A DNA stretch of 64,000 nt. Origin: Candidatus Woesebacteria bacterium. Lineage in GTDB: Bacteria; Patescibacteriota; Microgenomatia; UBA8517. A program made the position numbers and the translations under genes. Shown here piece by piece: positions 892-22,571 of this stretch. The stretch spans positions 337,833 through 401,832 of the forward strand of contig CP055308.1 of NCBI GenBank assembly GCA_013374855.1. Reading direction: 5' to 3'. Within the stretch, counting starts at the first letter, position 1; the number at the start of each line of letters is the position of its first letter. Under the pieces are notes generated by a model, which did not search any database, had not been told where the DNA came from, and saw only the letters and a program-made list of their open reading frames with translations.

Positions 892-3321
892 ATGAAAAAG
901 GCTTTTTTTAAGTACAGATTGTTAATTTTATTTTTTTCTGCTTTATTTTTAAGATTAGTTCTTTCTTTTTTTGGAACTTATGAGGGAGATTTTTATACTT
1001 TTATTGGCTGGAGTTTTCGTTTGGTATCAAGACCGTTGCCTGATTTTTACAAAGAATGGTCTGATTATTTGCCTGGATATCTTTACATACTTTATATTCT
1101 TGGTCGGATAAGACAAACTTTTGCTTTTATTCCAAATGAGATTCTTTATAAGTTTCCTGCTATTTTTTCTGATTTACTTGCTGGTTTGTTGGTTTATAAG
1201 ATAGTTGCGGGTTTAAAGAATAAAACGATTGCTTTTTGGGTTTCTATTGCCTATCTTTTTAATCCTGCTGTTTTTGCTAACTCTACTCTTTGGGGGCAGG
1301 TAGACTCACTAACTGTTCTTTTTCCTTTGCTTTCACTTTATTTTTTTAACATTTCTTTGCCATTTTCTTCATTTTTTCTTGCTTTTGGTGCTTTAGTTAA
1401 AGTACAAGCAGCCTTAGCTTTTATTCCTATTATAATTTTGTTTTGGAGAAAAGGATTGGGTTTTTACAAGCTTGTTAATTATGGCACTATTTCTGTTCTT
1501 ACGATAACTATTCTATTCTTGCCGTTTTTACCTTTTGGCAAGGATCTGGTGGATTTGCCGTCCTTTATCTTAGAAAGGATTGGTGCAACACTTGGGCAGT
1601 ATCCCTATCTTTCGGTGAACGCTTTTAATTTTTGGGGCTTATCTGGTTTTTGGGAGCAGTATTCTGATTATTTTCCAAACATTTTTCCAATTTTCATTTT
1701 ATTATTTGTTTCTTTTCTTCCTTATTTTAGAGCAAGAAACAAGGAAGGTCTGGAATATGTTGTTTTATCTTTGGTTTTTGCTGTATCTTTTCTTTTTTTT
1801 CCAAGAATGCATGAGCGTCATATGCTTCCTCTTTTTGCTCCCCTTGCTATATCTTGTGCTTTTTACCCCTTACTGTGGATAGTTTATTCCTTTTATTCCT
1901 TTTTTTATTTACTTAACCTTCGTTACGCTTTTGTTTGGCTGACAGAAGAAAGAAAAGAGATATTTACCAAACTTGAGATTAATTTGATTATTGTTCTTCT
2001 TCTTGTCCTTTTTGTTTTTTGGCTTTGGGTTGTTTGGCAGGACAAGAGAGATAACTTTTTTAAGAATATTGCTAAGTATTTCGGAAGATTTAGGAAAAAT
2101 TTTTCTGAAGACTATAAATTTCCCAAGTTTAATATAAATTCTAAAAGGGCTAAGTTTTTTTTGATTTTGATCTTAGTTTTTGCCTTTTTCTCACGGGTTT
2201 ATCAGTTGGGAAGACCTCAGCGAGAGTATTTTGATGAGGTCTATCATGCTTTTACAGCTCGGCTTATGCTTAAAGGCGATCCTAAAGCATGGGAGTGGTG
2301 GAATCCACATCCGGAGGGTTTTGCCTATGAGTGGAGCCACCCCCCTTTAGCAAAGCTGGGGATGCAACTAGGTATGCTTGTTTTTGGAGAAAACGCCTTT
2401 GGCTGGAGGCTTCCAGCTGCTTTGCTTGGCACGTTGTCGGTTCTGTTGGTTTATCTTTTGGCAAAAGAAATTTTTAAAGATTATCTTGTTGGTTTATTTT
2501 CAGCTTTGGTGTTCTCTCTTGATGGGCTTTTTTTGGTGGCGAGCAGGATTGGGATGAATGATATTTATGTTCTGTTTTTTTCTTTGCTTTCTATATATCT
2601 TTTTATTAAAGATAAATATTTCTTTTCTGCTTTGGCTTTGGGTCTTGCGTTTTCTTCTAAGTGGAGTGCTTTATGGGTTTTACCTATTCTTGTTTCTTCA
2701 TTCTTTGTCTTCAAAAAGAGGGTGGCTCTTCCTTATCTTTGGTTTTTGGTTCTACCACCTCTTGTCTATGTTTCAAGTTATACTCAAATGTTTTTGACTG
2801 GACATTCTTTTGATATTTTTTGGGGAGTGCAAAAACAAATGTGGTGGTATCATACAGGACTAGAGGCAACTCATCCTTACACCTCACCTTGGTGGAGCTG
2901 GCCGTTTTTGTTACGACCTGTTTGGCTTTACACGAATTCTTTTCCTGACGGAAAAGTGGCAAATATTTACTTTTTAGGCAATCCTGTTGTTTTTTGGTTT
3001 GGTGTTTTAGCTGTGTTTTATTCTCTTTATCTTTCATGGAAAAATAGATTTAAAAAACTTGCTTGGGTTATTTTTTCTTATTTTGTTTTCTTTGTTCCAT
3101 GGGCAGTTGCTCCTCGCATTATGTTTTTGTATCATTATCTTCCTAGCGTTCCTTTTATGAGTATGGTTTTGGGTTTTGTTTTAAGAAGAGATTTTGATAA
3201 GGCTTTGATATTTTTTACAATTGCCGCTTTTGTCTTTGCTTATTTTTACCCCCATCTTACAGGTATTCCCATAACAAAAGCTCTCGATATTTCTTACTAC
3301 TGGTTTGATAGCTGGCGTTAG
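892..3321 (+). CDS. Two-domain polytopic membrane glycosyltransferase. The C-terminal half is a protein O-mannosyltransferase-like (GT39/PMT) domain; the N-terminal half is a second GT-C-like membrane domain.
   Basis: The 809-aa product has many TM helices. Its C-terminal half carries the PMT hallmarks YFDEVYHAFTA and HPPLAKLGMQLGMLVFGENAFGWRLP, matching the FDEVH / HPPL-K loop-1 motifs of GT39 enzymes. Confidence 0.7.
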   Translation: MKKAFFKYRLLILFFSALFLRLVLSFFGTYEGDFYTFIGWSFRLVSRPLPDFYKEWSDYLPGYLYILYILGRIRQTFAFIPNEILYKFPAIFSDLLAGLLVYKIVAGLKNKTIAFWVSIAYLFNPAVFANSTLWGQVDSLTVLFPLLSLYFFNISLPFSSFFLAFGALVKVQAALAFIPIIILFWRKGLGFYKLVNYGTISVLTITILFLPFLPFGKDLVDLPSFILERIGATLGQYPYLSVNAFNFWGLSGFWEQYSDYFPNIFPIFILLFVSFLPYFRARNKEGLEYVVLSLVFAVSFLFFPRMHERHMLPLFAPLAISCAFYPLLWIVYSFYSFFYLLNLRYAFVWLTEERKEIFTKLEINLIIVLLLVLFVFWLWVVWQDKRDNFFKNIAKYFGRFRKNFSEDYKFPKFNINSKRAKFFLILILVFAFFSRVYQLGRPQREYFDEVYHAFTARLMLKGDPKAWEWWNPHPEGFAYEWSHPPLAKLGMQLGMLVFGENAFGWRLPAALLGTLSVLLVYLLAKEIFKDYLVGLFSALVFSLDGLFLVASRIGMNDIYVLFFSLLSIYLFIKDKYFFSALALGLAFSSKWSALWVLPILVSSFFVFKKRVALPYLWFLVLPPLVYVSSYTQMFLTGHSFDIFWGVQKQMWWYHTGLEATHPYTSPWWSWPFLLRPVWLYTNSFPDGKVANIYFLGNPVVFWFGVLAVFYSLYLSWKNRFKKLAWVIFSYFVFFVPWAVAPRIMFLYHYLPSVPFMSMVLGFVLRRDFDKALIFFTIAAFVFAYFYPHLTGIPITKALDISYYWFDSWR

Positions 3322-3324
3322 TGC

Positions 3325-5190
3325 TTACAGAATTAGGGCAAGAGATATTATTATTAATAGAATACTTATCGTCATTCCCATCATTGTTGGTGTGGAGATA
3401 CCAGCATCTGGTAGAGGTTCATCTTCAGGGGTTGGAGTAGGTATAAAAGTTGGTCTTGGTGTAGAGGTTGCTGTGGATCTTGGTCTGGGTGTAGGTGTTT
3501 CTTCCTCAGGTGTAGGTGTTGGTGAAGGTCTGGGTGTAGGTGTTTCTTCCTCAGGTGTAGGTGTTGGTGAAGGTGTTGCCTGTTCCAAATCGAAGTACAG
3601 CGGTGTACATGCATCCTCCGATGTCTCACATGGGAAAAACTTTATTTCCGTTCCTGTCCAAAACACTTCGGAATTGTTTACTAATATTCCATGATCCCAT
3701 TGGTAGAAACCGCAGATGTTATTTATTATGGAAAATGTTGCTGTTTTGGTTTCTCCCGGTCCTAATGTAATTGTTTCCTGACTAGTGAAATATGGAGGAT
3801 TGTTTCCGTAAGAAACCAGAGTTTGCGAGTCGGTACAAGTTTTTATGTTTTTTTCTTTGTAGTAGTTACAGCTTAAAGCACCAGCGCCTTTTTCGGTTGC
3901 CAATCTTTCCTGCCCTCCTGATGGATCATGTGGTGGTACGGCTGGGTTGTCAAAGCAGTGATTTGCATTCCAAAAGATTTTTCCGTTGTGGACTATTGCT
4001 CTCCTTCTATATTCCTTTCCACCCCGCCATATGCTTGTATAATACCAATTTCCTACTATGTATCCATCTACCTGCCCTTGGATATCCCCTTCGCCCGGGA
4101 GAGAGGATAATTCTGCAGGTCCTTTCCATGTGGTATCGCTATCCCATTTTGGGGCTCCATTTTCTATTGGTATCTGTCTTGAATAACCATTGTTATTACG
4201 CCAAAAAACTTGGCCAATGTGAGGCTGGTTTTGGTTAAATGTGACGTATTGATGTAAACTCTGGAATCTACCGTTGCCGGGATATTTACTTATGTCTATC
4301 TCTTCCCATCTGAACTTATTTCCTTCCCAAGGCACGTCTGGTGTGTTTATAGGCATTACTCTTCTATAAGCTTTTGTTATATTGTTTGTTTCTCTCCATA
4401 TTTCTTCATAGATTGTGGAGTTAAATTCGAATATTGCTTCGGCTATTACGTCTCCTGTGCCAGGGTAGTTGCTTGTATTAATCTCTTTCCATTCACTCCA
4501 CTTTATATCAACTTGTTCATCCCCTCTCGAGGTACTATCAACAATAATACCACTCCTTTTGTAGTTTTTATTTCCTATCCACATTGATTCCCAAATTGTT
4601 CTTGTCTTTTCAACCCTAAAGCTTGATCCTGCACTTGGCACCCCATTGGCAGGCAGTTCTATGTTTTGCGGGCCACTCCATTCTGATTGTACTCCCTCGT
4701 AAAAAATCTGAGTAAACTTTCGATAAGCCTCTTCCAAGTTTCCACCACCTTGTGTTCGGATAAATTCATTTATATCCTCCGGATAGTAGAGGTCTGTACA
4801 TTTTCCTACAGGTAATCCAATGGTGTACATCTTATAGGGGAAGGCTAGTAGTCTCAGTGTTAAGTTTTGATTCGTTTTGTTTGTAATAGTGTATTTTTGT
4901 GTTAGCACTCCACCTGTTACTGGTCTTGCATCTGTTTGCCCGCCAGGCTTAAAGTAAGTATGAGACTCATAATTTCCCGGTCCTGTGTCAACAACAGTAA
5001 CCTTTAGTTTTTGGCTTTCAAGTATTGTGCCTGATGGTGCTGCTTCACTTTTTTCTGGTGTTGTAGGGGCAACAGGCTTTTGCCTTAGTTTGTACAATCT
5101 GATAGATATAAAAATTCCCAACCCAGAAAGGATTAACAACAGAAAACTTAATATTATTAGTTTAATTTTCTTTTTTTTCGTGTTTTCCAT
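3325..5190 (-). CDS. Large cell-surface protein with an N-terminal signal-anchor TM, a Pro/Thr-rich tandem-repeat linker, and a C-terminal sorting signal LPDAGISTPT followed by a TM.
   Basis: The 621-aa product begins MENTKKKKIKLIILSFLLLILSGLGIF. Its C-terminus reads ...TPSPTPTPEEETPTPRPSPTPTPEEETPTPRP...EPLPDAGISTPTMMGMTISILLIIISLALIL. It is the last gene of the minus-strand operon. Confidence 0.7.
   Translation of the reverse strand: MENTKKKKIKLIILSFLLLILSGLGIFISIRLYKLRQKPVAPTTPEKSEAAPSGTILESQKLKVTVVDTGPGNYESHTYFKPGGQTDARPVTGGVLTQKYTITNKTNQNLTLRLLAFPYKMYTIGLPVGKCTDLYYPEDINEFIRTQGGGNLEEAYRKFTQIFYEGVQSEWSGPQNIELPANGVPSAGSSFRVEKTRTIWESMWIGNKNYKRSGIIVDSTSRGDEQVDIKWSEWKEINTSNYPGTGDVIAEAIFEFNSTIYEEIWRETNNITKAYRRVMPINTPDVPWEGNKFRWEEIDISKYPGNGRFQSLHQYVTFNQNQPHIGQVFWRNNNGYSRQIPIENGAPKWDSDTTWKGPAELSSLPGEGDIQGQVDGYIVGNWYYTSIWRGGKEYRRRAIVHNGKIFWNANHCFDNPAVPPHDPSGGQERLATEKGAGALSCNYYKEKNIKTCTDSQTLVSYGNNPPYFTSQETITLGPGETKTATFSIINNICGFYQWDHGILVNNSEVFWTGTEIKFFPCETSEDACTPLYFDLEQATPSPTPTPEEETPTPRPSPTPTPEEETPTPRPRSTATSTPRPTFIPTPTPEDEPLPDAGISTPTMMGMTISILLIIISLALIL
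3482..3571. repeat. Perfect 45-bp tandem duplication (two copies) inside the PT-rich linker coding region; each copy encodes a 15-aa PT-rich unit.
   Basis: The unit ggtctgggtgtaggtgtttcttcctcaggtgtaggtgttggtgaa is seen twice back to back, with a degenerate third copy upstream. Confidence 0.8.
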
Positions 5191-5197
5191 TTTTTAA

Positions 5198-6394
5198 TTA
5201 ATTAATGTCTCCTATCCACCCTATGCCCTCGTGGTAGATAGCCGCTTTTACAGTAAAGTTGACCACACCTTCTGGTATTTTGTATTGATAATAAATTTCC
5301 TTCTCTTCTGGATTATCTGTTGGTTTTTCTTTTGAGGCATCGACTTCTACAGGATTTTCGTTATTGACTTTAAACTTTGCCTTTTTAAACATGTTTGGGT
5401 TTTTTGACTTTCCTGTTATTGTAAAGTAAACTGTATCACCCGGTTTCAGTTTTGATAAGGTTTCACTATTAAGTAATCTCCAATTATTATTTTCCATTTG
5501 ATAGGCTTTTACATCCAGACATTCGACACTACTATCTTGCTTCTCGCTTGATATTGTTCTTACAACACAGGCAGGCATAGGAACTGATATTGGTTGCCCT
5601 TCCTTTTGAAAGTATGCTGTTATAGAAAGGTTTGAGACTACCTTGCCTGTTAGCTCGTCTTTGACGAACAGTTCCTCGTAACGTAGTGTTCTTTTACCTT
5701 CAGTTCTGGGTTCTTTATTTGGGTCCTCAAAAATTAAAAGATGGCTTCCTGGCGGACATATGTCTTGAGCTGTTGTTATGTCTCCTCCATCTTTTACACA
5801 AACAGGTTTTGGGTTGTTTTCAGGTGGAGGATCGTATAGGTTATCCATGTTGTATACTGCATACATAAAATAGTTTGCAGGTTCTTTAGATGTAGAAGTT
5901 ATGGTGATAGTTTCACCGGGTTTTAATGTTTTCTTGTTGACGTTAGCACTTTGACAGAGATCTGGCCTTTGTGGTGAGGGTGTTGTTTGTGGTGTATTGG
6001 GCTTTCCACGGCAACATCCCTGACACATACCCTTTTTCTTGCATGTACCGTCATCGTTGCATAGTCTGTCTATTATTTCATCACATTTGTCTGTAGCTGC
6101 CTTTTCTCTTATGTTTTGAGATTGTTGGCTAAGATAAACCCCGGTTCCTAATCCTCCGATCATAAGAAGCAATCCAAGTATTGTAGCTATTATTTTTCTT
6201 TTTCTTGTAGATTTTTTCTTGCTAGTAGTGAATGAAATAGTGTTTGGAACTTGATAATTATCTGTACTTGGATTTTGGGGTGCGTTTGGGTTTTCCTTAT
6301 CTTGCAAAGGTGGTATATCAACAAGTGGATCATTATTGACGGGAGCTTGTGGGCTATTATTAACATTTAAATGATTTACTTTATTTTGATCCAT
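5198..6394 (-). CDS. Membrane-anchored Cys-rich surface protein with the TM-QQSQNIREKAA N-module and CARDB/Ig-like beta-sandwich repeats. It has no C-terminal sorting signal.
   Basis: The 398-aa product has a basic patch KKKSTRKRK, then the TM IIATILGLLLMIGGLGTGVY, then LSQQSQNIREKAATDKC. A Cys-cluster follows, and LKPGETITIT / LKPGDTVYFTIT beta-sandwich signatures are present. Confidence 0.7.
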   Translation of the reverse strand: MDQNKVNHLNVNNSPQAPVNNDPLVDIPPLQDKENPNAPQNPSTDNYQVPNTISFTTSKKKSTRKRKIIATILGLLLMIGGLGTGVYLSQQSQNIREKAATDKCDEIIDRLCNDDGTCKKKGMCQGCCRGKPNTPQTTPSPQRPDLCQSANVNKKTLKPGETITITSTSKEPANYFMYAVYNMDNLYDPPPENNPKPVCVKDGGDITTAQDICPPGSHLLIFEDPNKEPRTEGKRTLRYEELFVKDELTGKVVSNLSITAYFQKEGQPISVPMPACVVRTISSEKQDSSVECLDVKAYQMENNNWRLLNSETLSKLKPGDTVYFTITGKSKNPNMFKKAKFKVNNENPVEVDASKEKPTDNPEEKEIYYQYKIPEGVVNFTVKAAIYHEGIGWIGDIN

Positions 6395-6441: not shown

Positions 6442-7311
6442 TCAAAACACTATTGAAAAAAACGAGATTAGTATTAGCAGAATTCCTGTTGTTATACCTA
6501 AAAATGTGGGTGTGCTAACACCGGATTCTGGCTGTGGAAGGGGAGATGGTGTGGGTGTTTTTATGTTTATTTGTGTTTGGCTTGTTGGAAAGGGAGTGGT
6601 TGTTTTCTCTGGTTCTGTTGTATTTACCGGAGTTTTGTTACTTGGGGTGGGTGTTGTGGGCGTTTCTGTAGGTTGACTTGATTCTACTTTGTAATTTCCT
6701 GTGCTTGATGGTGTAAGGAGAATATCTTCTCCTGTTGTTTTGTTGGTTGCTTTTGTAGTAGTGGGCTCAAATACTAGAGTGATTGATCCTGGGTTATAGC
6801 CTTTGAAAGTAATAGTGGCAAGAATTTCTTCACCCGATGTCTTATATCCGGTGGTTGAGCTGTTTAGCCCACCAATACGGATTTCTGCTAAACCATCTGA
6901 AGCATCGTAGGTCTTTATTGGAAAGTTCCAACCCCCGTTAACTAAAAGGTTAGAATTAATTTGGATATTTTCTGCTTTTATTGGAGGTTCAGGGGAACTG
7001 TATTGATATGTTAGATTTATTGTAAGGGCTGATATGTAATTACCCGCAGTATCAATGAGTATATTTACATCGAAATTTTCATCCTTTTTGATAGTTTTAG
7101 TCTCTGGTGAAAGAAATACTCTCACTGTGCCTGTTGGCGTGGCGGCTTTTTCTCTTATTTCTTGATTCTTTTTGACCAAAATTATACCTATCGCTGTTCC
7201 GACCACAAGCGAAAGTATACCGAGAGTTATTAGTGCTATTTTTCCTCTTTTTCTGTTTTTTCTTTGGGTGATTATCTTATCTTCTTCCATCGTAAATTTA
7301 TTTGCCAACAA
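6442..7311 (-). CDS. Cohesin-like domain surface protein (scaffoldin-like) with an N-terminal TM-KNQEIREKAA module and a C-terminal PT-rich linker plus PQPESGVSTPT-TM sorting signal.
   Basis: The 289-aa product has a central ~130-aa segment FDVNILIDTAGNYISALTINLTYQY...GLAEIRIGG...SGEEILATITFKGYNPGSITLVF with a cohesin-type beta-sandwich pattern. The cohesin domain is approximately at 6744..7140. Confidence 0.55.
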   Translation of the reverse strand: MLANKFTMEEDKIITQRKNRKRGKIALITLGILSLVVGTAIGIILVKKNQEIREKAATPTGTVRVFLSPETKTIKKDENFDVNILIDTAGNYISALTINLTYQYSSPEPPIKAENIQINSNLLVNGGWNFPIKTYDASDGLAEIRIGGLNSSTTGYKTSGEEILATITFKGYNPGSITLVFEPTTTKATNKTTGEDILLTPSSTGNYKVESSQPTETPTTPTPSNKTPVNTTEPEKTTTPFPTSQTQINIKTPTPSPLPQPESGVSTPTFLGITTGILLILISFFSIVF

Positions 7312-7861
7312 TGAAATTCAGTTCTTTTCCGGAGTTATCTATAATTTTAGTTTCTTCACTTACGGCTATATTTTCCTTTTCAAATTCTTTACCAATATCT
7401 ATTGTTGCTAAAATCACTTCTTGATTGTTTCCAATTGTTAGTTTTTCTCCAATTATTACCCCTCCTAACTTGAAAATAGTTTTGTTTTCTTTGATCTCTA
7501 CATTTTTGATAGGAAATATGAAGCCATTTTTTGCAAGTTCGCTTTGGATTGATTGGTTGGTTAGGTTATATAAAGGTTCATCTAATATTACCTCCATAGT
7601 GAAAGCTCTAATATACTCTTCTTTTTCTCTAATGTTTTCGATAGAAATTATTATTTTTGTTTTTTCGGTCATTTTTGTCCTAAGTTTTAGTGGGGGTTCT
7701 TCTTGCGGAGGTGTATATATTTCTTCAATTTGTGTGTTAATGTTTTGCTCTTTTGGATACTCTTTTGATAAATATTTTGCTATGACACCAAACAAAGCAA
7801 CTATAAATATGGCCAGAGAAAAAGCAAGTGTTATATTCAAAGTTTTATTTCTGTTTTCCAT
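7298..7861 (-). CDS. Hypothetical N-terminally membrane-anchored protein in the surface operon.
   Basis: The 187-aa product has the N-terminal TM LNITLAFSLAIFIVALFGVIA. It is tightly packed between the dockerin and cohesin genes, with a 14-nt overlap with the downstream gene. Confidence 0.45.
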   Translation of the reverse strand: MENRNKTLNITLAFSLAIFIVALFGVIAKYLSKEYPKEQNINTQIEEIYTPPQEEPPLKLRTKMTEKTKIIISIENIREKEEYIRAFTMEVILDEPLYNLTNQSIQSELAKNGFIFPIKNVEIKENKTIFKLGGVIIGEKLTIGNNQEVILATIDIGKEFEKENIAVSEETKIIDNSGKELNFIVGK

Positions 7862-7866
7862 TTGTG

Positions 7867-9411
7867 TTAGTCTCCTTTAATGATAAATGATGACCAGTTT
7901 AAAGCAACAAGTGCTAAATCATCAATTGTGATATAACCATCTTTAGTTATGTCAGCCCCAATCATATTTTTATCTGATGCATTTACTTTTATTTTGAAGT
8001 CTGTATAGTATTTCAGTACGAGAGATATATCCTCTATGCTTATAATGTTGTCGTTGTTAGCATCTCCTGCTTTTAGTTCATCTTTGATGTCTGTGCTTTT
8101 GTCTATTATTGTATTGTTATTGCTTATTTGTACGTTGGCGAATTTTTTTCTAAGATGAGATACTCCTTTTATGTAAAGATTATAAGTACCGGCGGGGATA
8201 TTGTTTCCTTGTTCATCAGTTGAGAAATTAATTGTCCAGATTCCGTTTTCATCAACAGAAACGGGTGCTTGCCCGATCTTGTGAGTTTTCTCTTCGTTTG
8301 TAAGGGTGATGTAAGTATCTAATTGAGAGGGAATGTTTGATTTAATTTTTGTTGTAATCCCTTGTTGTCTGAAGAGAATTTTTATGTTTTCTGTGGGACT
8401 GCTTTTTGGGGAAACTGCTATTATCAGAGCATAATCATTAAAGTCGCATTCTGCTTTTTTAGCATAATCCCCCCAGCATTGTTGGGAGATAATTATTCCT
8501 CCCGAGCTTTGTGTCGTCTTGATTAAAGATGATACATCCTTTTCTTTGCACTTATTGTTTTCTGGTTTTATCCATCCTTCGAAGGGGTAAGGCCCACTAT
8601 CACTGCCAACGTCTTCTCCATAAATACAAAGTTTATCCCCGTTTTTGACTTGGACCCCCGTTACTATTACTTGATCCGTTTTTGTGTCTTTTGTGTCTAT
8701 CAATTTGTCATATTCGGTTAAACTGCAAGTTTGGCTGTTTTTCTTTAGGGCAATTTTGGGTGGGGTAGATTCTAAAAAGCTGGCAAAGGAAAGCAGGACT
8801 TCTCCATCGTTTTTTATGTCTAAAACTGTTGGATTTGGATTTTTATCGCAAGAGTTTTCACCTCCACCGCCTGATGATGTAGTACAAGTACATTTTGGTT
8901 TTCCATCGCTACCGCTTTGGTTTAAGGCAATGCATTTCTTACCACTTCCACAAGAATCTCCAGGATTTTTCCCTTGACATTTTGCAGCCGAAGCACTGCT
9001 GCATCCTGCTTGTGTTCCTCCACCACCTCCACCCCCGCCGCTACCTTGAGCCTGGATACATTTTCCATCTTGATATAAAGGTTTATCAGTGGGACAACAT
9101 GTTGTCAGACGTCCGCTTGTGGACATTATGCAATATATTGCTTCTGGTAAAGATTTGGGTAAATTGCAATCAGTGGCTGGGCAATAAGGATAGTCGCAGG
9201 CCGAGTGTTTGATGCATCTTTCTTGATTGCACATGTAACCTTTGGGGCAGCCAGCTCCAATTCCACAAAGACCTCTGTTGCCAGAATCACAGATCATCTC
9301 TGCCTTTTCTCTTATGTCTTGAGATTGTTGTGTTAGGACTATTCCAGATGTTGCTCCAATGAGCAGTAGGAGGGTGAAGAGGATTTTAATTATCTCTTTT
9401 TTTGTAATCAT
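7867..9411 (-). CDS. Cys-rich surface protein with the TM-QQSQDIREKA N-module, a poly-Gly run, a prealbumin-like beta domain and a C-terminal dockerin domain.
   Basis: The 514-aa product ends with two Ca-binding dockerin repeats, GDANNDNIISIEDISLVLKYY and ADITKDGYITIDDLALVALNW. It contains GGGGGGGG and many Cys. Its start overlaps the stop of the upstream gene by 1 nt. Confidence 0.7.
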   Translation of the reverse strand: MITKKEIIKILFTLLLLIGATSGIVLTQQSQDIREKAEMICDSGNRGLCGIGAGCPKGYMCNQERCIKHSACDYPYCPATDCNLPKSLPEAIYCIMSTSGRLTTCCPTDKPLYQDGKCIQAQGSGGGGGGGGTQAGCSSASAAKCQGKNPGDSCGSGKKCIALNQSGSDGKPKCTCTTSSGGGGENSCDKNPNPTVLDIKNDGEVLLSFASFLESTPPKIALKKNSQTCSLTEYDKLIDTKDTKTDQVIVTGVQVKNGDKLCIYGEDVGSDSGPYPFEGWIKPENNKCKEKDVSSLIKTTQSSGGIIISQQCWGDYAKKAECDFNDYALIIAVSPKSSPTENIKILFRQQGITTKIKSNIPSQLDTYITLTNEEKTHKIGQAPVSVDENGIWTINFSTDEQGNNIPAGTYNLYIKGVSHLRKKFANVQISNNNTIIDKSTDIKDELKAGDANNDNIISIEDISLVLKYYTDFKIKVNASDKNMIGADITKDGYITIDDLALVALNWSSFIIKGD

Positions 9412-10733
9412 TAGTTTGTAAAAAGCAGAACGCCACTTGCTGTAAACAATAGTAAACCGGCAAAAAGCAAAATTAAAGTAGGTGTTTTAACACCGGATTC
9501 GGGTTGGGCAGGGGTAGCTGATGGGCTTGCTATTTTTGGGGTAGGAGTGAAAGCAAGTGGTGTTGGTGTTAGACTTGCCGAAGGTGTGCTTTCAAAAGCA
9601 GGCTCATCTGTTTCTGCAGCTTTGATTGTAAAGTTTCTCACAATGTTTCTTAAGATTCCGTTTTCGTCACGATAGGTGATTGTTATTTTGTGCTCCCCTG
9701 GAGACAGATTTTTGGGAGGGGACCATCTCCAAGTACCGTCGGATGATGCTCTTATGGTATCGGAAATCGGGCTTTCGGATTCTACCTTAATTGTTATTTG
9801 TTCTTGGGGAGGAGCTTTTCCAAAAAATTCTGGTTTGGTTGTGTAAATTGTTTCTCCGTCTTCTATGCTTTCAAGAGATACCGTTTTGTTTGTAGTTGTG
9901 TTTTTTTCATTTTCTTCAATGTCAAACCTTGGTTTCTTGGTTTTTTCTTCTGGTGTTTCAATTTCTGAGCTTGGCAGAGAAGCTTCTTGGTTTGTTGTTG
10001 TAGATGTTATGTTTGTAAAGTCGTGGTTTTCTCCCAATATCATTGGTGGGAGAGTTAAACCTGTTGCTAAATAAGCTTCTGCGGTTGATATTCCTTGGGG
10101 TCCTGCTTGAGCAATGATGGAGACTTTGAGGTTGGAAACTGATTGGAGATAATTACTTAAATTGCTGTCTAGAAGAGAGTTAATATTTATTATCCAATTG
10201 CCATTTCCTGATGTTGTAGTTGATAGAACTTGCGCTCCCTCTATGTTTAGGATTACAAGAATGTTTGTTGCTTCAGTTCCTGAAGCAGTGATGACTTTAC
10301 CTCCTATTCTTATATTGTCTGATGACGCATTGTTGAGTGGTGGTGCTGTCTTAACTTCCCATGCTTTTTGATTGTTGTCATACGTCTTGTCGTCTGAGAT
10401 TATTTTGAAAAAGTAATTTTTGTTTGGGGAAAGTCCTGAGATAGTTGATGAGTGTACAAAGCTTTTGCCTTCTATTTCATCTAGTGCTGTTTGGTTTAGA
10501 TTGTTTTCACTTTCTCCCCATATAACAAAACCTGTTGTTCTTTGAGAAGTTGTCCATATTACAGAAAAAGATGAACTTGTTATGTTTGTAATTTTTACAT
10601 CTTGAGGAGGATAATTTCCTTCAGCGCCAAGCCTAAATATTTGCCTTTGTTTGACAAGAATTACAGCTATGGGTAAACTTGTTATAAGCAGGAATAACCC
10701 GATTATTGTTGGTATTCTTATTTTGTCCATCAT
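9411..10733 (-). CDS. Fibronectin type III domain surface protein with the variant N-module TM-VKQRQIFRLGAEG and the C-terminal sorting signal AQPESGVKTPT followed by a TM.
   Basis: The 440-aa product has an FN3 signature PPQDVKITNITSSSFSVIWTT...GFVIWGE...ISGLSPNKNYFFKI, located at about 10358..10610. The C-terminus reads ...PAQPESGVKTPTLILLFAGLLLFTASGVLLFTN. Confidence 0.7.
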   Translation of the reverse strand: MMDKIRIPTIIGLFLLITSLPIAVILVKQRQIFRLGAEGNYPPQDVKITNITSSSFSVIWTTSQRTTGFVIWGESENNLNQTALDEIEGKSFVHSSTISGLSPNKNYFFKIISDDKTYDNNQKAWEVKTAPPLNNASSDNIRIGGKVITASGTEATNILVILNIEGAQVLSTTTSGNGNWIININSLLDSNLSNYLQSVSNLKVSIIAQAGPQGISTAEAYLATGLTLPPMILGENHDFTNITSTTTNQEASLPSSEIETPEEKTKKPRFDIEENEKNTTTNKTVSLESIEDGETIYTTKPEFFGKAPPQEQITIKVESESPISDTIRASSDGTWRWSPPKNLSPGEHKITITYRDENGILRNIVRNFTIKAAETDEPAFESTPSASLTPTPLAFTPTPKIASPSATPAQPESGVKTPTLILLFAGLLLFTASGVLLFTN

Positions 10734-11092
10734 TACTCCTCATCGATTTCATATTCACCTGTAATTTCATTCCTTTCAACAGGCTCTATTGTAGGCGAGG
10801 GGGTTTCCGTTTTTGGTGTAGGAGTGTTTTGTATGCTAACTTCTTTTGGGGTGGGGTTTGGTGTTTTAATTATTGTTTCCTTGAAACCGCCTTCTTCAAA
10901 GTGTTTTTTATTCTTTATTTTTTCTATTACTTCAAGTCCTACGTTTGGATCAACAGGTTGTATAATTTCTGGAGGAACAACAACAGGCAGAGGTTTTTTG
11001 AAAGTTTGGTAGATGCTATAAAATACCCAGCTTACCACAGTTATTGAGGTAAGGATTAGTGTAAAAACTGAATTTGGTAATTTTTTCGCCAT
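10733..11092 (-). CDS. Small Pro-rich membrane-anchored protein, in the PilP-like position downstream of pilO.
   Basis: The 119-aa product has an N-terminal TM and a PT-rich tail. Its start overlaps the pilO stop by 1 nt (TAATG), consistent with translational coupling. Confidence 0.4.
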   Translation of the reverse strand: MAKKLPNSVFTLILTSITVVSWVFYSIYQTFKKPLPVVVPPEIIQPVDPNVGLEVIEKIKNKKHFEEGGFKETIIKTPNPTPKEVSIQNTPTPKTETPSPTIEPVERNEITGEYEIDEE

Positions 11093-11820
11093 TATTGTTC
11101 TTTATCTATCATTTCCATATCTTCTTTTTTAGTGTTTTCTTGATTCTTTTTAATTTCTTTTTCTTTGCTTTCCATAAAGTATAATGCCTTTGCGTTTATG
11201 TTAAGGTTTAATGTCTCGCTATTAGAATCATCCTCGCTGTCTTTTTCTGGTTGCAGATTAAACTGATCGAATATTAGTATTCTTAAGAGGTTTTCGTAAG
11301 TTTGAATGGTTTTTATTAGATTTTCATATCGTCCTTTTATTGAAATACTTGTTTCAAAGTAGCTTGAATTTTCTGGTATTTTTGTTCTATCTACACCTAC
11401 ATTGGAATTGCCTGCCAAGATGATGTTTTTTGTGGATATTGATCTTATTTCAACTTCAGATTCATTTGAGGCAGCTTCGATTTGTCTTATTACTATCTCA
11501 GGGTCTGGTTTTGATGGCAAAGATGTGTCAAGCAAGGAAAGGCTACTTTCTTCTTGCGATAGTATTTGTTGTGCTTTTTGAAGATTTTTTATTTTTATAT
11601 CCATCTTTGACAAAGTCTCTTTTTTGGCTTTTATTTCTTTATTTATTTCTATTATGGTGTTGGCTGTTGGTTTCAAGGCAAAAACAGAAAAAATTACTAT
11701 TGCCAAGGATGTGAGTATTAATTCAACAAAGTTTCTAACATTTTCCTTTTCTTTGTAATAATTGTAGTTTTTCCAGAATAGGTTTTTGTATTGATTGTAC
11801 GTATTTCTCCAGCTTCTCAT
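11092..11820 (-). CDS. pilO: Type IV pilus assembly protein PilO-like.
   Basis: The 242-aa product has a short cytoplasmic N-terminus, one TM (LILTSLAIVIFSVFAL), a coiled-coil and a C-terminal domain (ISIKGRYENLIKTIQTYENLLRILIF) typical of PilO. It lies immediately downstream of pilN. Confidence 0.6.
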   Translation of the reverse strand: MRSWRNTYNQYKNLFWKNYNYYKEKENVRNFVELILTSLAIVIFSVFALKPTANTIIEINKEIKAKKETLSKMDIKIKNLQKAQQILSQEESSLSLLDTSLPSKPDPEIVIRQIEAASNESEVEIRSISTKNIILAGNSNVGVDRTKIPENSSYFETSISIKGRYENLIKTIQTYENLLRILIFDQFNLQPEKDSEDDSNSETLNLNINAKALYFMESKEKEIKKNQENTKKEDMEMIDKEQ

Positions 11821-11828
11821 ACTTTATT

Positions 11829-12419
11829 TTAATTTTCAGTTTTTTTCACTGGTATAGACAAACTGAATTTTAGTAGTTGACTATTTTCCTCGTCTGGTCC
11901 TATCTGTGACAGAGCGGTATTTTTGAATTCTTCTTGTGATTGAAGGTTAACAAGAATTTGAGCTATAGAATTTTCATCCTTTGCTATGCCAGAAATAGTA
12001 ATTTTTTCTTCGTTTAAGGCAATTGATGACAAAATTATTGTTGGAGGGATTTGACTTGTTAGTTTGCTTATGACCTCGGAAGGAATAATTTTGTTTGATG
12101 AAACCTCGCTTATGATAGAGGTTTTCTTTTGCACTTCTCTAATTCTGTTTTCGGTCTCTTTCATTGCTTTTATTTGTGCTTCTTTTTGTCTTATTTCTTC
12201 TGATAGGTCGGTGTTTTTAGCATCAAGCCAGAATCTAGACATGAAAGCGGAGATGACGAAAAGTTCAACTATTATTACCAGAGTTCTAAAAGTTGATAAG
12301 AACCAAACCAAGACTCTGCCTGCAGTTGTTTCTGAGAACTTGTCTTGAGGCAATAAATTTATTTGTTTTTCTTTCTTGCTTTTAAGGGCAGACATCAAAG
12401 AAATAATATCACAAAGCAA
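11829..12419 (-). CDS. pilN: Type IV pilus assembly protein PilN-like.
   Basis: The 196-aa product has the conserved N-terminal INLLP motif (the PilM-binding motif) followed by a TM, a coiled-coil and a periplasmic domain. Confidence 0.7.
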   Translation of the reverse strand: MLCDIISLMSALKSKKEKQINLLPQDKFSETTAGRVLVWFLSTFRTLVIIVELFVISAFMSRFWLDAKNTDLSEEIRQKEAQIKAMKETENRIREVQKKTSIISEVSSNKIIPSEVISKLTSQIPPTIILSSIALNEEKITISGIAKDENSIAQILVNLQSQEEFKNTALSQIGPDEENSQLLKFSLSIPVKKTEN

Positions 12420-20437: not shown

Positions 20438-21297
20438 ATGAAAAATCTGATTATTATGATATCTTAGGAGTTGGCAGAAATGCCTCGGCAGAGGAGATAA
20501 AAAAAGCTTATCGGAGGCTTGCTTTGGAATGGCATCCAGACAGACATAAAGATGATAAAGAGGTTGCTGAAAAGAAATTCAAGGAAATAAACGAGGCTTA
20601 TCAAGTCTTATCAGATCCTGAAAAGAGGGCAGCTTACGATCAGTTTGGTCATTCTGCTTTCTCACCGGGTGGGGCTGGGTTTTCTGGTTCCCCTTTTTCT
20701 CAATCCGGCCGCTGGGGTCCCTTTACTTATACTTATACTACCTCTGGCGGCTCTCCCTTTGAAGGTTTTGATTTTGGTGATCCATTTGATATTTTTGAAC
20801 AGTTTTTTGGGGGATCGCCTTTTGCAAGAACAAGAAGAGTTCCTCGCTATTCTATTACCCTTGATTTTATGGAAGCAGTTGAGGGTTGCGAGAAGGAAAT
20901 TGTAGTTGAAGGGAAAAAAAGGAGGGTAAAAATTCCAGCTGGTATTGATGAAGGATCACGCATTAATTTTGGCGACTTTATGCTTTCTGTGAATATCCGT
21001 CCACACCCAATTTTCGAGCGTGACGGAGCGGATGTTTATGTAAGAGTGAATATTCCCTACTCCTTGGCTGTTTTAGGTGGCGAAGTTGAGGTTCCAACCT
21101 TGGATGGGAGTGTTAAAGTGAGGGTAAGGGAAGGTACTAAGGCAGGCACACTGATGCGTCTTCGTGGCAGGGGCGTTAAGAGGTTGCGCGGTGCTGGTAG
21201 GGGCGATTTTTATGTAAAGTTTGATATTCTGGTGCCAGATAAGATAAAAGGTAATCAAAAGGCAGCGGTTCAGGCACTTAGAAAAGTAGGGCTTTAA
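20434..21297 (+). CDS. dnaJ: DnaJ-like co-chaperone (J domain, G/F region and C-terminal substrate domains) with no CxxCxGxG zinc finger; CbpA/type II-like.
   Basis: The product reads [32 protein letters not shown] and has a G/F-rich stretch. No Cys-rich Zn-finger repeats are present. Its start overlaps the clpB stop (ATGA). Confidence 0.8.
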
Positions 21298-22571
21298 ATT
21301 GCAAGAGCAATAGAGATTACCAAGAGCAGAATACTTATTCCGGTTCCTATTATGGTTGGGGTTGAACTACCAGCTTCAGGTAGTGATTCTTCCTTTACAA
21401 TTTGTTGTGGTGTAGAAGTAGGAGTTAATGTTTGTGTGATTGCTGTCCTTTCTGTTGGTTGAGGAGTTGGTGCATTAGTGGGTTGATTTGTATAGGTTGG
21501 TCCTAAGGTAGGTGTACTTGTAGGAGTAACTGTGGGAGATGCCGTTGGACTAGGACTTGGACTAGGAGTTGGGGTGAAGAGTAACTCACAAGTTAGTCCG
21601 GTCTGACAAAATCCATCTGGGCCTACATCAAGGCAAGCTCGTCTTGGCAGGCCTTCGCATGGATCTTTTGGAGGTCGTGGGCGTTTTGGAGGTTTTGTAG
21701 GTTGAGGCATTGGTGGAATTGTTGGTTCCGGTACCTCTGTGGGTGTAACCGTAGCGGTGGGTGTAGGCGTTGGGGGAAGTGTGGAAATGGGAGTCTCTGT
21801 GGGTGGCACTGGTGGTTCACAGTTTAGAACTCCAATATGTAGTCTTGTTTGATAAGAACCGCAGGCTTTTCCGCTTGTTGACTGGCTTGTGACAGTGATG
21901 GATTTTGATTCGTTGTGTCCCAATTCAAATGTCTCTCCCTTTGGCGGGTTGTTTGGATCGGGCTCGTCACATACTGGGTAGCCTTCAATAAATTCGCCAC
22001 AAGGGCTGTCGGGGCAGTAGTTTGATTCTGTAATTGTTCTTATTTCTGCCTTTTCATTCTCAAATCCCGGTTTGGCCTCGATAGTGATTGTCCATGTTGA
22101 GGAGTAGGAGGTTATGTTGTTTGTTTGTATTCCGTTGGGAGTACATTGCAATATTTGAGGACATTGAGTCTTTTCCTCCTCGCTGATGTAGACTTTGAAT
22201 TTTGCACAGTCTAGGACTTTGATAACATCCTCTGGTGGAATGAACGCTTTTTCTCTTATTTCTTGTCGTCTTTGGCTTAAGAATACTCCTGCTCCGATTC
22301 CCCCTGCCACTATCAGTAAGATTAAAATTGTGGCGATTATTTTCTTTCTGTACCTTGCCTTACTAGGTGGTTTTATGATGTTAGGCGCGAATGAGGAGGC
22401 AGAGGAGCCTGCGTTGGCCTTAGAAAAACCACTGCTACTTTTGCTACCTGTGTTGTGGGCTGGTATTACTTGTTGTTTTTCTTCCGGAGGCGGAGGAGGT
22501 GGTGGTATATCTGCCGTATCGGCAAAGAATGGGGTGTTATTATTGCTGTTCTCTTGGAGACTTGTTGCCAT
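21294..22571 (-). CDS. Surface protein with a long Pro-rich cytoplasmic tail, the [15 protein letters not shown]-module, Cys-containing beta domains, a PT-rich linker and the sorting signal [10 protein letters not shown] followed by a TM.
   Basis: The 425-aa product has an N-terminal region [35 protein letters not shown] paralogous to the 5198..6394 protein. Its C-terminus reads ...[31 protein letters not shown]. Confidence 0.7.

Follow-up and report, generated by a model that had tools for sequence, protein, structure and literature searches.

A conserved N-terminal transmembrane module ending in Q-[DEN]-IREKA on surface proteins of Woesebacteria and other Microgenomates

The locus and its genes

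The window, the whole stretch of Candidatus Woesebacteria DNA analysed here, is 64,000 nucleotides long and contains a cluster of surface-protein genes. A GT39/PMT-type gene adjoins this cluster, in related genomes also, and encodes a protein O-mannosyltransferase-like membrane protein (892..3321, plus strand; Pfam PMT_4TMC E=3.5e-21, PMT E=3.5e-14). On the minus strand the genes for PilN (11829-12419; Pfam PilN E=1.6e-12, with an INLLP motif) and PilO (11092-11820; Pfam PilO E=7.9e-9) form a block at 11092..12419 which, judged by synteny, starts an operon running on into an FN3 protein and the family of ORF 5198-6394. The order pilN-pilO-FN3-family5198, flanked by murJ/dnaK and a GT39 gene, is kept in at least 12 genomes.

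Six-frame translation of the window gives IREKA four times and nowhere else, always on minus-strand ORFs (6098-6112, 7144-7158, 9301-9315 and 22245-22259), in agreement with the original prediction that four proteins carry Q-[DEN]-IREKA after a signal-anchor helix. Each copy lies 10 residues past an N-terminal hydrophobic helix of about 22 residues, and a basic patch is found ahead of the helix. We refer to this arrangement as the class-1 module. The copy at 6098..6205, in ORF 5198-6394, is the locus of the finding. There, residues 64-99 (minus strand) comprise KKSTRKRK, the transmembrane (TM) segment IIATILGLLLMIGGLGTGVYLS and QQSQNIREKA, with a module HMM E value of 7.9e-22. The copy in ORF 6442-7311 (7144..7263, minus strand) comprises RKNRKRGK, IALITLGILSLVVGTAIGIILV and KKNQEIREKA (module HMM E=2.6e-13); this ORF encodes a single-cohesin protein with a C-terminal sorting signal, and its IREKA-type motif is retained in 27 homologs. 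ORF 7867-9411 encodes a Cys/Gly-rich protein with a weak dockerin match (E=8.8e-4, under the Pfam cut-off) and carries the module at the extreme N-terminus (9301..9411, minus strand) as MITKKEIIK, ILFTLLLLIGATSGIVLT and QQSQDIREKA (module HMM E=9.2e-13). The fourth copy, in ORF 21294-22571 (22245..22361, minus strand), comprises KARYRKK, a 22-residue TM segment and the 10-residue motif (module HMM E=1.6e-18). It is preceded by a 70-residue Pro-rich tail homologous to that of ORF 5198 (residues 12-99 against 11-109).

The four proteins had been described as paralogs. They do share the N-terminal module but the term is too loose, since their mutual similarity is restricted to the N-terminal tail and module and, in some, the C-terminal linker and sorting signal. 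No Pfam or NCBIfam family covers the N-terminal part of any of the four, and the homologs carry no precomputed Pfam domain.

The majority of carriers belong to one membrane-protein family with Ig-like domains, of which ORF 5198-6394 is a member. ORF 5198-like proteins have two Ig-like domains, a conserved Pro-rich cytoplasmic tail and no second anchor. A fold search with the ectodomain of ORF 5198 returned generic tandem Ig/FN3-like matches only and gave no functional lead. The tail of this ORF (residues 1-63; 6206..6394, minus strand) is Pro/Asn/Gln-rich, predicted to be disordered (pLDDT <50) and has a conserved DIPP motif; Pro28 and Pro29 are kept in at least 90% of 112 homologs. Predicted cytoplasmic tails of 40-184 residues precede the helix in 132 of 151 carriers. 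They are acidic with 20% proline, begin with MP in 102 of 134 cases and contain PP[MLIVP]P in 81 of 134, and in many DIPPV(I/V)T stands directly before the basic patch. Two of the four window copies, those of ORFs 5198 and 21294, have long tails (63-70 residues).

Sister classes and sortase-type substrates

Degenerate variants of the motif had been proposed for three further proteins. All three are present, in ORFs 9411-10733, 26182-27237 and 3325-5190, but the first and last of these represent separately conserved sister classes. Class 2 is found in the FN3/Big_13 protein ORF 9411-10733 (10623..10733, minus strand; MMDKIR, IPTIIGLFLLITSLPIAVILV and KQRQIFRLGA), the orthologs of which, in at least 12 genomes, retain (R/K)IPTILGL..GV.LV..QIF(R/K)LGA. 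Class 3 is the N-terminus of ORF 3325-5190 (5068..5190, minus strand; KKKKIK, LIILSFLLLILSGLGIFISI and RLYKLRQKPVA). Its conserved form, ...FTAI-RLYQLRQEAVAPTAPE, is seen in small LPXTG-type proteins of other genomes. The degenerate module proper is that of the cohesin protein ORF 26182-27237 (26227..26328, plus strand; KNK, IVSLLSVMLLVLGLGAGIFAL and NRSLEMRVGA), with module HMM E=3.2e-5 and Pfam Cohesin E=1.4e-8.

Putative sorting signals of LPXTG type, each followed by a TM segment, occupy the C-termini of several of these minus-strand ORFs. The motif is LPDAGISTPT in ORF 3325-5190 (3325..3414), QPESGVSTPT in ORF 6442-7311 (6442..6534, where the AlphaFold2 (AF2) model has a helix at residues 260-281), QPESGVKTPT in ORF 9411-10733 (9411..9506) and a 10-residue motif in ORF 21294-22571 (21294..21383). 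The window signals thus take the form LP[ED][AS]G or QPESG then TM without a basic tail, and the TIGR01167 LPXTG_anchor model gives 11.5 bits, for ORF 21294-22571, against a cut-off of 15.9. Homologs of ORF 6442-7311 have PESG, PETG or PDSG, and orthologs of ORF 9411-10733 have PETG, PQTG or PESG, then TM and a basic tail. The enzyme that processes these C-terminal signals is probably the sortase encoded at 44034..44744 (plus strand; Pfam Sortase E=6.8e-26).

In the window and 19 loci from other genomes, all 17 complete LPXTG-like ORFs carry a class 1, 2 or 3 N-terminus, and none of the ORFs with a classical signal or plain anchor has an LPXTG-like C-terminus. Other proteins headed by the module are of cohesin, dockerin and LPXTG type; the passenger of ORF 6442 has a cohesin fold. 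In the sortase-type carriers the folded domain starts 6-8 residues past the final alanine of the motif and a long spacer is placed C-terminal to it. Two dockerin proteins of the window have classical short signal peptides (VLA↓R, ALA↓R). The module is therefore a class of its own and does not represent the default signal of the organism.

Conservation and distribution

The original prediction had proposed a genome-wide motif scan and a profile search. These place the module well beyond four genes, with matches to the module profile in 843 protein clusters at E<=1e-3 and 87 at E<=1e-10. Each matched cluster has one match and it is N-proximal. The consensus is KKKFGGGK-IIATILGLLLLVGGVGAGVxLV-QQQQ[DEN]IREKA. 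Numbering from the glutamine of Q-[DEN]-IREKA as 0, which places Glu at +4, Lys at +5 and the final Ala at +6, the best conserved residues are G-8 and A+6 (100% each), Q0 (99%), L-5 (98%) and E+4 (97%). Conservation ends sharply past A+6; alanine is found at +7 in 44% and there is no conserved position from +8 on. Such an abrupt end after an invariant alanine resembles a processing or boundary site. In a 112-sequence alignment of ORF 5198 homologs, three of the four invariant columns (G85, Q93 and A99) fall in the module. Random occurrence in non-secreted proteins, which had been named as the case against the original prediction, is not what is observed: the module marks exported surface proteins only, across protein families. 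It is a real, strongly conserved N-terminal unit.

A scan of 185,579 species genomes was made using eight sequences, a 27-sequence alignment being too diverse for this use. The strict pattern gave 82 matches, of which 19 were confirmed; the other 63 are close to the chance expectation in 596 Gb, on a rough estimate. The confirmed loci, at least 19, occur in Woesebacteria, Microgenomates or Patescibacteria metagenome-assembled genomes only, and this count is a lower bound since the strict pattern excludes variants such as QDIRERA and QNINEKA.

A word-indexed homolog search with the 47-residue module gave three matches and revealed stand-alone mini-ORFs. These module-only ORFs of 43-49 residues are found in three contigs in the same gene context, following the gene for an LPDAG protein and preceding that for a GT-C protein. 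Two of them differ by 18 synonymous and five non-synonymous codon changes, and within the TM segment and motif by 17 and one, respectively. This pattern shows a 44-residue stand-alone module gene under purifying selection.

A literature search for 'IREKA' returned unrelated words only, and we found no description of the module in the literature on signal peptides or sortase of Patescibacteria/Microgenomates.

Structure and topology

The module has a cytoplasmic basic patch, a 22-residue glycine-rich TM segment (IIATILGLLLLVGGVGAGVxLV) and a 10-residue polar/charged turn outside the membrane. AF2 models of two proteins with unrelated passengers place it in a single helix that ends at EKAA, residues 67-100 in ORF 5198 and 14-50 in the 282-residue form of ORF 6442. 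In the latter the cohesin fold begins six residues past the helix end. In the models Q-[DEN]-IREKA therefore caps, on the outer side, an unbroken helix of about 34 residues, with pLDDT of only 54-61 for the juxtamembrane part in both. A test for a helix-packing interface, seeking one-sided helical periodicity of conservation, was not significant (1645 of 5000 permutations equalled or exceeded the observed value); all positions are conserved in the set used because the sequences were chosen for similarity.

Comparison with known signals and enzymes

Classical signal peptides have an h-region of about 7-15 residues, up to about 20 in Gram-positive bacteria, with small residues at -3 and -1. The module is not at the extreme N-terminus in those 132 carriers where 40-184 residues precede the basic patch, its hydrophobic span is 22 residues, and for a cut after A+6 position -1 would be Ala (100%) but -3 would be Glu (97%). 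An alternative internal site, G/A-x-G↓V, obeys the -3/-1 rule but falls inside the hydrophobic span.

Several specialised signals were considered and rejected. The type IV pilin (class III) signal does not apply, as KKKFGGGK-IIATILG lacks both a Glu at +5 and a Phe or Met following Gly. For a lipoprotein signal (SPase II) cysteine would be expected, but nowhere between -38 and +6 does it rank among the five commonest residues. An RR consensus is missing from the Lys-rich basic patch, which excludes a Tat signal, and the SipW-dependent model (TIGR04088) gave no match at E<=10. The KxYKxGKxW accessory-Sec motif (TIGR03715) is absent, and neither SecA2 nor SecY2 was seen in the window. YSIRK/GXXS (TIGR01168) had already been set aside in the original prediction because the motif follows the hydrophobic segment; the layout of the module bears this out, and NCBIfam gave no YSIRK/GXXS match even at E<=10 and no signal-peptide model match.

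The comparison with YSIRK/GXXS is nonetheless instructive. Both are conserved, lineage-restricted N-terminal classes on a subset of exported proteins, tied strongly to sortase substrates and occurring alongside ordinary signal peptides in the same genome. In contrast, the YSIRK motif precedes the hydrophobic core or coincides with its start, and that of the module follows the core by about 10 residues. The two have no sequence similarity, and the module has a 22-residue span, often a tail of 40-184 residues ahead, and a stand-alone form. YSIRK is thought to direct the site of precursor secretion, with septal secretion of S. aureus protein A (PMC5962339).

KxYKxGKxW/GspB proteins also have unusually long N-terminal regions. 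In GspB a conserved segment just past the signal is needed for transport. Glycines in the hydrophobic core, a feature shared with the module, route GspB export according to Bensing et al. (2007, PMC1913339) as cited in PMC5578698. The cargo in both cases is LPXTG-anchored, putatively so for the module carriers, and probably glycosylated, these carriers having PT-rich linkers and the adjoining GT39 gene, but their glycosylation would be extracytoplasmic (PMT-type), not cytoplasmic.

The C-terminal tripartite signals (LPXTG/sortase, PEP-CTERM/exosortase, GlyGly-CTERM/rhombosortase and MYXO-CTERM/myxosortase; PMC11980579) have the same three parts and topology as the module: an outer signature motif, a TM helix and a cytoplasmic basic cluster. 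They too are taxonomically restricted, with multiple copies per genome attached to passenger domains that are unrelated. The order of the module is, however, mirrored, and it is found together with a C-terminal signal of sortase type in one and the same protein. Since it is N-terminal, cleavage would free the cargo and not form an acyl-enzyme with it.

Type II bitopic anchors (PilN, PilO, DivIC/FtsL and FliL) share a short basic N-terminus, a single TM segment and a helix continuing outside, and the genes for module carriers come immediately after pilN and pilO. The outer helix of the module is, by contrast, only about 2.5 turns long and ends at the invariant alanine. No homology of the module to PilN, PilO or FliL was detected; NCBIfam matches were sub-threshold noise, mostly to FliL N-terminal anchors.

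The original prediction placed a dedicated processing or sorting step at the motif and suggested a rhomboid-type cut. The sharp end of conservation and the association with sortase signals favour the general idea. The rhomboid proposal fares less well. Rhomboids cleave helix-destabilised TM segments, inside the membrane or at its border, with a small P1 and hydrophobic P4 and P2' residues, and most of their substrates are N-out helices. The TM segment is Gly-rich and the would-be P1 residue is Ala, but P4 is Arg (86%), and such a cut is unlikely here because the site is about 10 residues outside the span on an N-in/C-out helix.

Functional considerations

Does the helix stay in the membrane after export, or is the chain cut near the invariant alanine? 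We favour, with a probability of roughly 0.45, a retained export-and-anchoring helix of Woesebacteria/Microgenomates that contacts a partner and is parted from its cargo only in carriers with a sortase signal. Sec would insert the helix N-in/C-out with the basic patch inside and the Cys-rich and beta-sandwich domains outside, and the helix would remain in the membrane in the ORF 5198-like home family and in the module-only mini-proteins. The conserved small residues (A-23, G-19, G-13/-12, G-8 and A+6) and a rigid juxtamembrane turn may create a contact surface for a common membrane partner, candidates being other carriers, the co-operonic PilN/PilO, or sortase. Such contact could bring several surface proteins together at a single site where the envelope is assembled. 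The module would have been shuffled onto other passengers, namely cohesin, dockerin and PT-rich wall proteins. In carriers with a C-terminal sortase signal the helix would most likely be an export leader also, with the chain probably released near the invariant alanine; a dedicated cleavage step for sortase substrates is plausible.

A different proposal, which we regard as unlikely, is that an extracytoplasmic peptidase cuts every carrier just after the invariant alanine (REKA↓A, RLGA↓x, AVA↓P). The alanine would keep a constant distance of about 10 residues from the membrane, the ectodomain would be freed for wall anchoring or secretion, and a tail-TM stub, or a mini-protein mimicking the stub, would be left behind. 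Consistent with this, in all three N-terminal classes, as well as in further exported proteins of these genomes, the alanine is invariant and lies a constant 9-12 residues past the span; conservation ends there, as do both AF2 helices, each of which leads into a flexible link of 3-6 residues. In the sortase-type substrates, as in sortase-anchored cohesin proteins, the functional domain directly adjoins the N-terminus and the spacer is at the C-terminal end. Sortase substrates characterised elsewhere are stripped of their N-terminal signal, and the occurrence of the module or a sister class on 17 of 17 LPXTG-type ORFs is no less compatible with a cleaved leader than with a retained anchor. Other features argue against a simple throw-away leader: the Glu at -3 in 97% of modules, the 22-residue span, the conserved tails, up to 184 residues of which would be discarded, and the 44-residue genes under purifying selection with a 'cargo' of four residues. 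The c-region is moreover long and predicted to be helical, and this and Glu at -3 are poor features for a LepB-type signal peptidase I. Crude regular-expression scans of about 400 kb of conserved neighbourhoods gave no peptidase I (LepB-like) or rhomboid gene and one unlinked S2P-like ORF.

More speculative, and in our view doubtful, is that the module constitutes a new N-terminal sorting signal, read extracytoplasmically and mirroring LPXTG/PEP-CTERM. A putative Microgenomates enzyme or complex would read it and route all sortase substrates and the pilus-operon protein to one envelope site, and the leader (tail-TM-QEIREKA), released or stand-alone, would itself be a functional micro-membrane protein.

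An ordinary Sec signal peptide, cut by SPase I inside the Gly-rich stretch (…GG-V-G-A-G↓V-x-L-V…), is improbable. The n-region would be KKKFGGGK, the h-region IIATILGLLLLV and the c-region GGVGAG, leaving VxLVQQQQDIREKA as the mature N-terminus. This division obeys the n/h/c rule, with a 12-residue h-region, GG at -6/-5, Gly or Ala at -3 in 93% and Gly at -1 in 100%, and many class 2 and class 3 sequences have small-x-small at the same position. Four further hydrophobic residues past the site, however, extend the span to 22 residues, which AF2 places in one helix; position -3 is taken by Pro or Phe in a number of class 2 members; and long conserved cytoplasmic tails lie upstream. Nor would such a cut account for the next 14 residues being better conserved than the rest of the protein.

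CPR bacteria, Microgenomates among them, are uncultured organisms with tiny genomes whose presumed lifestyle is one of attachment to other cells. That lifestyle depends centrally on their surface proteins, most of which lack annotation. The module would provide a handle for cataloguing the surface proteome, from the pilN/pilO-linked protein and the cohesin/dockerin proteins to, apparently, every sortase substrate sampled, and for finding the handling machinery by phylogenetic profiling. It may also form the basis of export or display tags in heterologous study. If it is a processing signal it would be an N-terminal counterpart to the known C-terminal sorting signals; if a retained interaction helix, it would suggest that the envelope is assembled at a defined site with a link to the type IV pilus platform.

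Nucleotide sequence and codon usage

Conservation at the nucleotide level had been claimed, with identical codons ATA-AGA-GAA-AAG-GC in all four copies and a shared string at 6101-6122, 7146-7167, 9304-9325 and 22246-22267. This is not borne out, and we see nothing beyond codon bias and shared descent. Only ATA-AGA-GAA is common to the four copies; the Ala codons are GCA, GCC, GCA and GCG, and the Lys codon is AAG in one half of the copies and AAA in the other, so that the exact 12-mer cttttctcttat occurs only twice, at 6101 and 9304. A looser 20-nt consensus, GCYTTTTCTCTTATNTCTTG, matches the four module sites only in the window, and dinucleotide-preserving shuffles of the window gave zero matches. 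Whole-module DNA identity among the four copies averages only 66%. Beyond the motif there is one shared tract of 31 nt (ORFs 5198 and 7867) and one of 20 nt (ORFs 6442 and 21294), with no others. In 19 other genomes the same peptide is encoded using ATT/ATA/ATC, AGA/AGG/CGN, AAA/AAG and GCN. Synonymous codons thus differ freely among genomes, and what is constrained is the protein and not its nucleotide sequence.

These data bear on the view that the module has no special function and is a generic membrane anchor inherited through recent gene duplication, its shared codons reflecting codon bias. ATA, AGA and GAA are indeed the favoured codons of these A-rich surface genes (0.51, 0.68 and 0.79, respectively) and account for most of the DNA identity, and the short identical tracts are confined to two gene pairs. 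Yet the module is the best-conserved part of proteins otherwise 25-40% identical, the 843 clusters that carry it were already collapsed at 50% identity, and it is found on unrelated passenger folds and retained despite plentiful synonymous change. This view is largely refuted and we consider it very improbable.

A nucleotide-level element (recombination handle, regulatory site or RNA structure) might be read into the identical 20-31 nt tracts and the four consensus matches against zero in shuffles, but it is rejected with near certainty given the low DNA identity within the window, the 18 synonymous sites separating two mini-ORFs, and the codon variation at Ile, Arg, Lys, Ala, Gln and Asp in the 19 other genomes.

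The motif and its coding DNA

Six-frame translation of the AT-rich window (GC 0.33-0.44) reveals four copies of IREKA, at 6098-6112, 7144-7158, 9301-9315 and 22245-22259. All are in long minus-strand ORFs (5198-6394, 6442-7311, 7867-9411 and 21294-22571), 10 residues past a hydrophobic helix of about 22 residues with a Lys/Arg patch ahead of it. A 20-nucleotide consensus matches the same four sites and has no match in shuffled sequence. The original prediction of a motif shared by these ORFs is therefore correct at the protein level, and the motif is non-random. The basic patch, transmembrane (TM) helix and Q-[DEN]-IREKA together are termed the module; positions are numbered from the Gln before [DEN]-IREKA (0), the final Ala being +6 and TM positions negative.

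The accompanying claim of conservation down to the nucleotide level was overstated. ATA-AGA-GAA is common to all four copies, these being favoured codons of the A-rich surface genes (0.51, 0.68, 0.79), but the 12-mer cttttctcttat occurs twice in the window, not four times, the Lys codon varies (AAG, AAA, AAG, AAA) as does that for Ala (GCA, GCC, GCA, GCG), and the mean DNA identity over the module is only 66%. The only standout shared tracts are 31 nucleotides in ORFs 5198-6394 and 7867-9411 (97%) and 20 nucleotides in ORFs 6442-7311 and 21294-22571. In 19 other genomes the heptapeptide is encoded with ATT, ATA or ATC, with AGA, AGG or CGN, with AAA or AAG, and with all four Ala codons. Given this synonymous variation and the codon bias in the window, the peptide is the level at which selection acts. 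Nor are the four carriers paralogs over their full length, as had been proposed; BLASTP finds them similar only in the N-terminal tail and module and, for some, in a C-terminal linker and sorting signal.

Extent and consensus of the module

A profile of 44 positions, compared with 1.84 billion representative proteins pre-collapsed at 50% identity, gave 843 matches at E≤1e-3 and 87 at E≤1e-10, one per protein, so the module reaches well beyond the four window genes. The consensus was taken from the top 151 matches, aligned on the motif. The basic patch consists of K-32 and K-31 (71% each), F-30, G-28, G/K-27 and K/R-26 (95%). The TM segment starts with I-A-T-I-L-G at -24 to -19 (77-93%), followed by L-15 (97%), the small residues G-13 (91%), G-12 (93%), G/A-10, A-9 and G-8 (100%), and ends with L-5 (98%) and V/T-4. 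The outer segment reads Q-Q-Q/N, Q0 (99%), D/E/N, I+2 (87%), R+3 (86%), E+4 (97%), K+5 (81%), A+6 (100%) and A+7 (44%). Conservation then stops sharply, with no conserved position past +7 in these 151 sequences, which continue as Cys-, Gly- and Pro-rich sequence.

A strict pattern run against 185,579 species genomes identified 19 confirmed loci, all in Woesebacteria, Microgenomates or Patescibacteria MAGs; some are titled 'uncultured Gammaproteobacteria' yet display the same CPR synteny. The EF-Tu encoded in the window belongs to a 90%-identity cluster with 'Candidatus Woesebacteria bacterium' and 'Patescibacteria group bacterium' as its named members. Pfam and NCBIfam have no model for the module, even when matches up to E≤10 are admitted. 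In function it most resembles two conserved types of signal peptide on Gram-positive sortase substrates, the YSIRK/GXXS signals (PMC5962339) and the long accessory-Sec signals, with glycines, of serine-rich glycoproteins (Bensing 2007, cited in PMC5578698). The topology of the module mirrors that of tripartite C-terminal sorting signals. Since it lacks the defining sequence features of all three, and no description was found in the searchable literature, we class the module, from its sequence, as a putative lineage-specific N-terminal signal or anchor class previously undescribed in that literature. That it represents a truly new sorting system is unlikely, with about one chance in four.

The ORF 5198-6394 family

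Most of the top profile matches are homologs of ORF 5198-6394, sharing the C-terminus ...EFYDEYTIPxGVTSFTIxAQIHHxTLGWF. In an alignment of 112 family members three of the four invariant columns (G85, Q93 and A99) fall inside the module. The AF2 model (pLDDT 75.9) has residues 1-63 disordered, then a single predicted helix, 67-100, that covers the basic patch, TM segment and QQSQNIREKAA and ends at the motif. A Cys-rich link and two beta-sandwich domains (pLDDT above 90) follow, for which a fold search gave generic Ig/FN3-like matches only. The topology signals place the basic patch inside and the disulfide-type Cys-rich and beta-sandwich domains outside.

Upstream of the module 132 of the 151 carriers have 40-184 residues (median 78). 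The tails are acidic and 20% Pro, with abundant Thr, Ser, Asn, Asp and Gln and hardly any Arg, His, Tyr, Trp or Cys. They start with MP in 102 of 134 cases, 81 of 134 contain PP[MLIVP]P, and many have DIPPV(I/V)T directly ahead of the basic patch. ORF 21294-22571 has the tail, as well as the module, in common with ORF 5198-6394. The extension is a real, conserved cytoplasmic tail, and its short motifs look like docking motifs for a putative cytoplasmic partner. In the window the tails lie at 6206-6394 and 22362-22571; like those of database homologs P0025-P0169 they are disordered, with an MPDQNN-like start, a PPPP run and DIPPV(I/V)T by the membrane.

Other carriers, sister classes and sortase signals

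The module is also found on unrelated passenger domains. In ORF 6442-7311 (AF2 pLDDT 80.2) a helix, 14-50, ends at EKAA and precedes a beta-sandwich (56-202), a disordered PT linker and a C-terminal TM helix; in the PDB it matches cohesins best (E=2.7e-10, TM-score 0.76). Its 27 homologs, with identity down to 35%, retain L-5, Q0, I+2, K+5, A+6 and small residues at -12 and -8, whilst R+3 is variable. ORF 7867-9411 joins the module to a Cys/Gly-rich chain with a weak dockerin match, ORF 21294-22571 to a PT-rich chain ending in LPEAG then TM, and further database carriers end in PETG or PDSG then TM.

Two proteins encoded in the window have a single cohesin each, 6442-7311 (by fold) and 26182-27237 (by Pfam). 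Dockerin and CBM-like domains occur in two large secreted proteins (22665-26063 and 45142-47565), and 7867-9411 adds the weak dockerin. This set suggests a cellulosome-like surface docking system in a CPR genome. At their 3′ ends (25384-26052 and 46889-47557), the genes for the two large dockerin proteins share a 670-nucleotide stretch, 99.6% identical, that encodes the CBM-like and dockerin parts, a sign of recent duplication or gene conversion. Minus-strand ORF 7298-7861, located between the cohesin and dockerin carriers, encodes a small bitopic protein with a plain N-terminal anchor lacking the motif; some 85 residues into this protein ...ENIREKEE... occurs, perhaps by chance or as a remnant.

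Variants of the motif regarded as degenerate are indeed present in further surface proteins, but are themselves conserved classes. Class 2, represented by the FN3/Big_13 protein 9411-10733, retains (R/K)IPTILGL...GV.LV..QIF(R/K)LGA across orthologs, and class 3, the small LPXTG-type proteins akin to 3325-5190, retains ...FTAI-RLYQLRQEAVAPTAPE. Common to all classes, including the IREKA carriers (class 1), are 20-23 hydrophobic residues, 9-12 polar residues rich in Gln, Arg and Asn, and a terminal Ala. Of the complete ORFs with an LPXTG-like C-terminus, from the window and the 19 loci, all 17 begin with one of these three N-termini. Motif and C-terminal signal are both absent from plain anchors (PilO, LCP-like, sortase, MltG-like) and from two dockerin proteins whose signals are classical (VLA|R, ALA|R). 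The window C-terminal signals (minus strand; 3325-3414, 6442-6534, 9411-9506 and 21294-21383) comprise LP[DE]AG or QPESG, x2-TPT and a hydrophobic helix; they are atypical, with no basic tail, and their TIGR01167 score of 11.5 bits is below the cut-off (15.9). At 44034-44744 the window encodes a sortase, an enzyme reported as near-ubiquitous in Microgenomates (PMC6744442). Just upstream, outside any obvious prophage context, ORF 41721-43991 encodes a 756-residue protein with a Baseplate_J-like domain (Pfam E=6.6e-8).

Stand-alone module genes

Mini-ORFs of 43-49 residues encode nothing but the module, for example MYLKHLKKKLLTAIGIILLLGGIAAGLYLVQQGQEIREKAATQK, with the plan basic patch, TM, QEIREKAATQK. 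They occur on metagenome contigs (L022:606-740, L023:436-570) and among the database homologs (P0001-P0003, P0021, P0023). In three contigs the mini-ORF is flanked by a surface-protein gene and, downstream, by a long ORF; in the two for which DNA was read the upstream protein ends LPDAG then TM and the downstream protein is GT-C glycosyltransferase-like. Comparison of two copies gave 18 synonymous and 5 non-synonymous codon changes, of which 17 and 1, respectively, fall in the TM and motif part; the module, here with a 'cargo' of four residues, is thus under purifying selection.

Retention or cleavage

We infer that the module is a lineage-specific export-and-anchoring helix, for which a sorting or processing role is plausible. 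In the 5198 family and mini-proteins it would most simply be kept as a type II anchor, given a conserved cytoplasmic tail and the lack of any other anchor. In sortase substrates 6-8 residues separate the Ala from the folded domain, and the long PT spacer lies at the C-terminal side. Wall-anchored proteins whose N-terminal signal is removed are arranged in this way, so these substrates are likely to be released near the invariant Ala. A LepB-type cut at A+6 is disfavoured by the Glu at -3, a helical c-region of 10 residues and a hydrophobic span of 22 residues. Cleavage at an internal G/A-x-G|V site would satisfy the -3/-1 rule, but within the hydrophobic span. The rhomboid-type cleavage of the original prediction is unlikely, as both site position and N-in orientation of the helix are unfavourable. 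A crude motif scan of the neighbourhoods found no candidate peptidase syntenic with module loci. The small-residue positions and rigid outer turn of the helix could dock to a common membrane partner; such binding is hypothetical, given that a test for one-face conservation was not significant and the outer part of the helix has low pLDDT.

Gene neighbourhood

The surface-protein genes form a minus-strand run at 3.3-12.4 kb (3325-5190, 5198-6394, 6442-7311, 7298-7861, 7867-9411 and 9411-10733), with pilO (11092-11820) and pilN (11829-12419) ahead on the same strand. A GT39/PMT-like glycosyltransferase gene (892-3321) lies on one flank, MurJ and hrcA-grpE-dnaK on the other. At least 12 Microgenomates genomes have dnaJ-dnaK-grpE-hrcA-murJ on one strand and, on the other, pilN-pilO-FN3/Big_13 protein-5198 family-[small LPXTG proteins], then the GT39 gene, the order being represented by window 9411-12419 and loci L003, L005-L010, L015-L017 and L020. 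The module is thereby linked in an operon to pilN and pilO; PilN keeps its INLLP motif, and no pilM is adjacent to pilN-pilO. The extra window genes (7867, 7298, 6442) are inserted between the FN3 and 5198-family genes.

A single base, at 9411, is shared by the stop codon of the FN3 gene (9411-10733) and the start codon of ORF 7867-9411, suggestive of translational coupling among these surface-protein genes. Strand-wide G/C disparity is known for some Microgenomates genomes (PMC7143001). GC skew in 2-kb bins over 1-64000 is positive, approximately +0.1 to +0.3, even across minus-strand genes, in all but bin 4001-6000 (-0.05).
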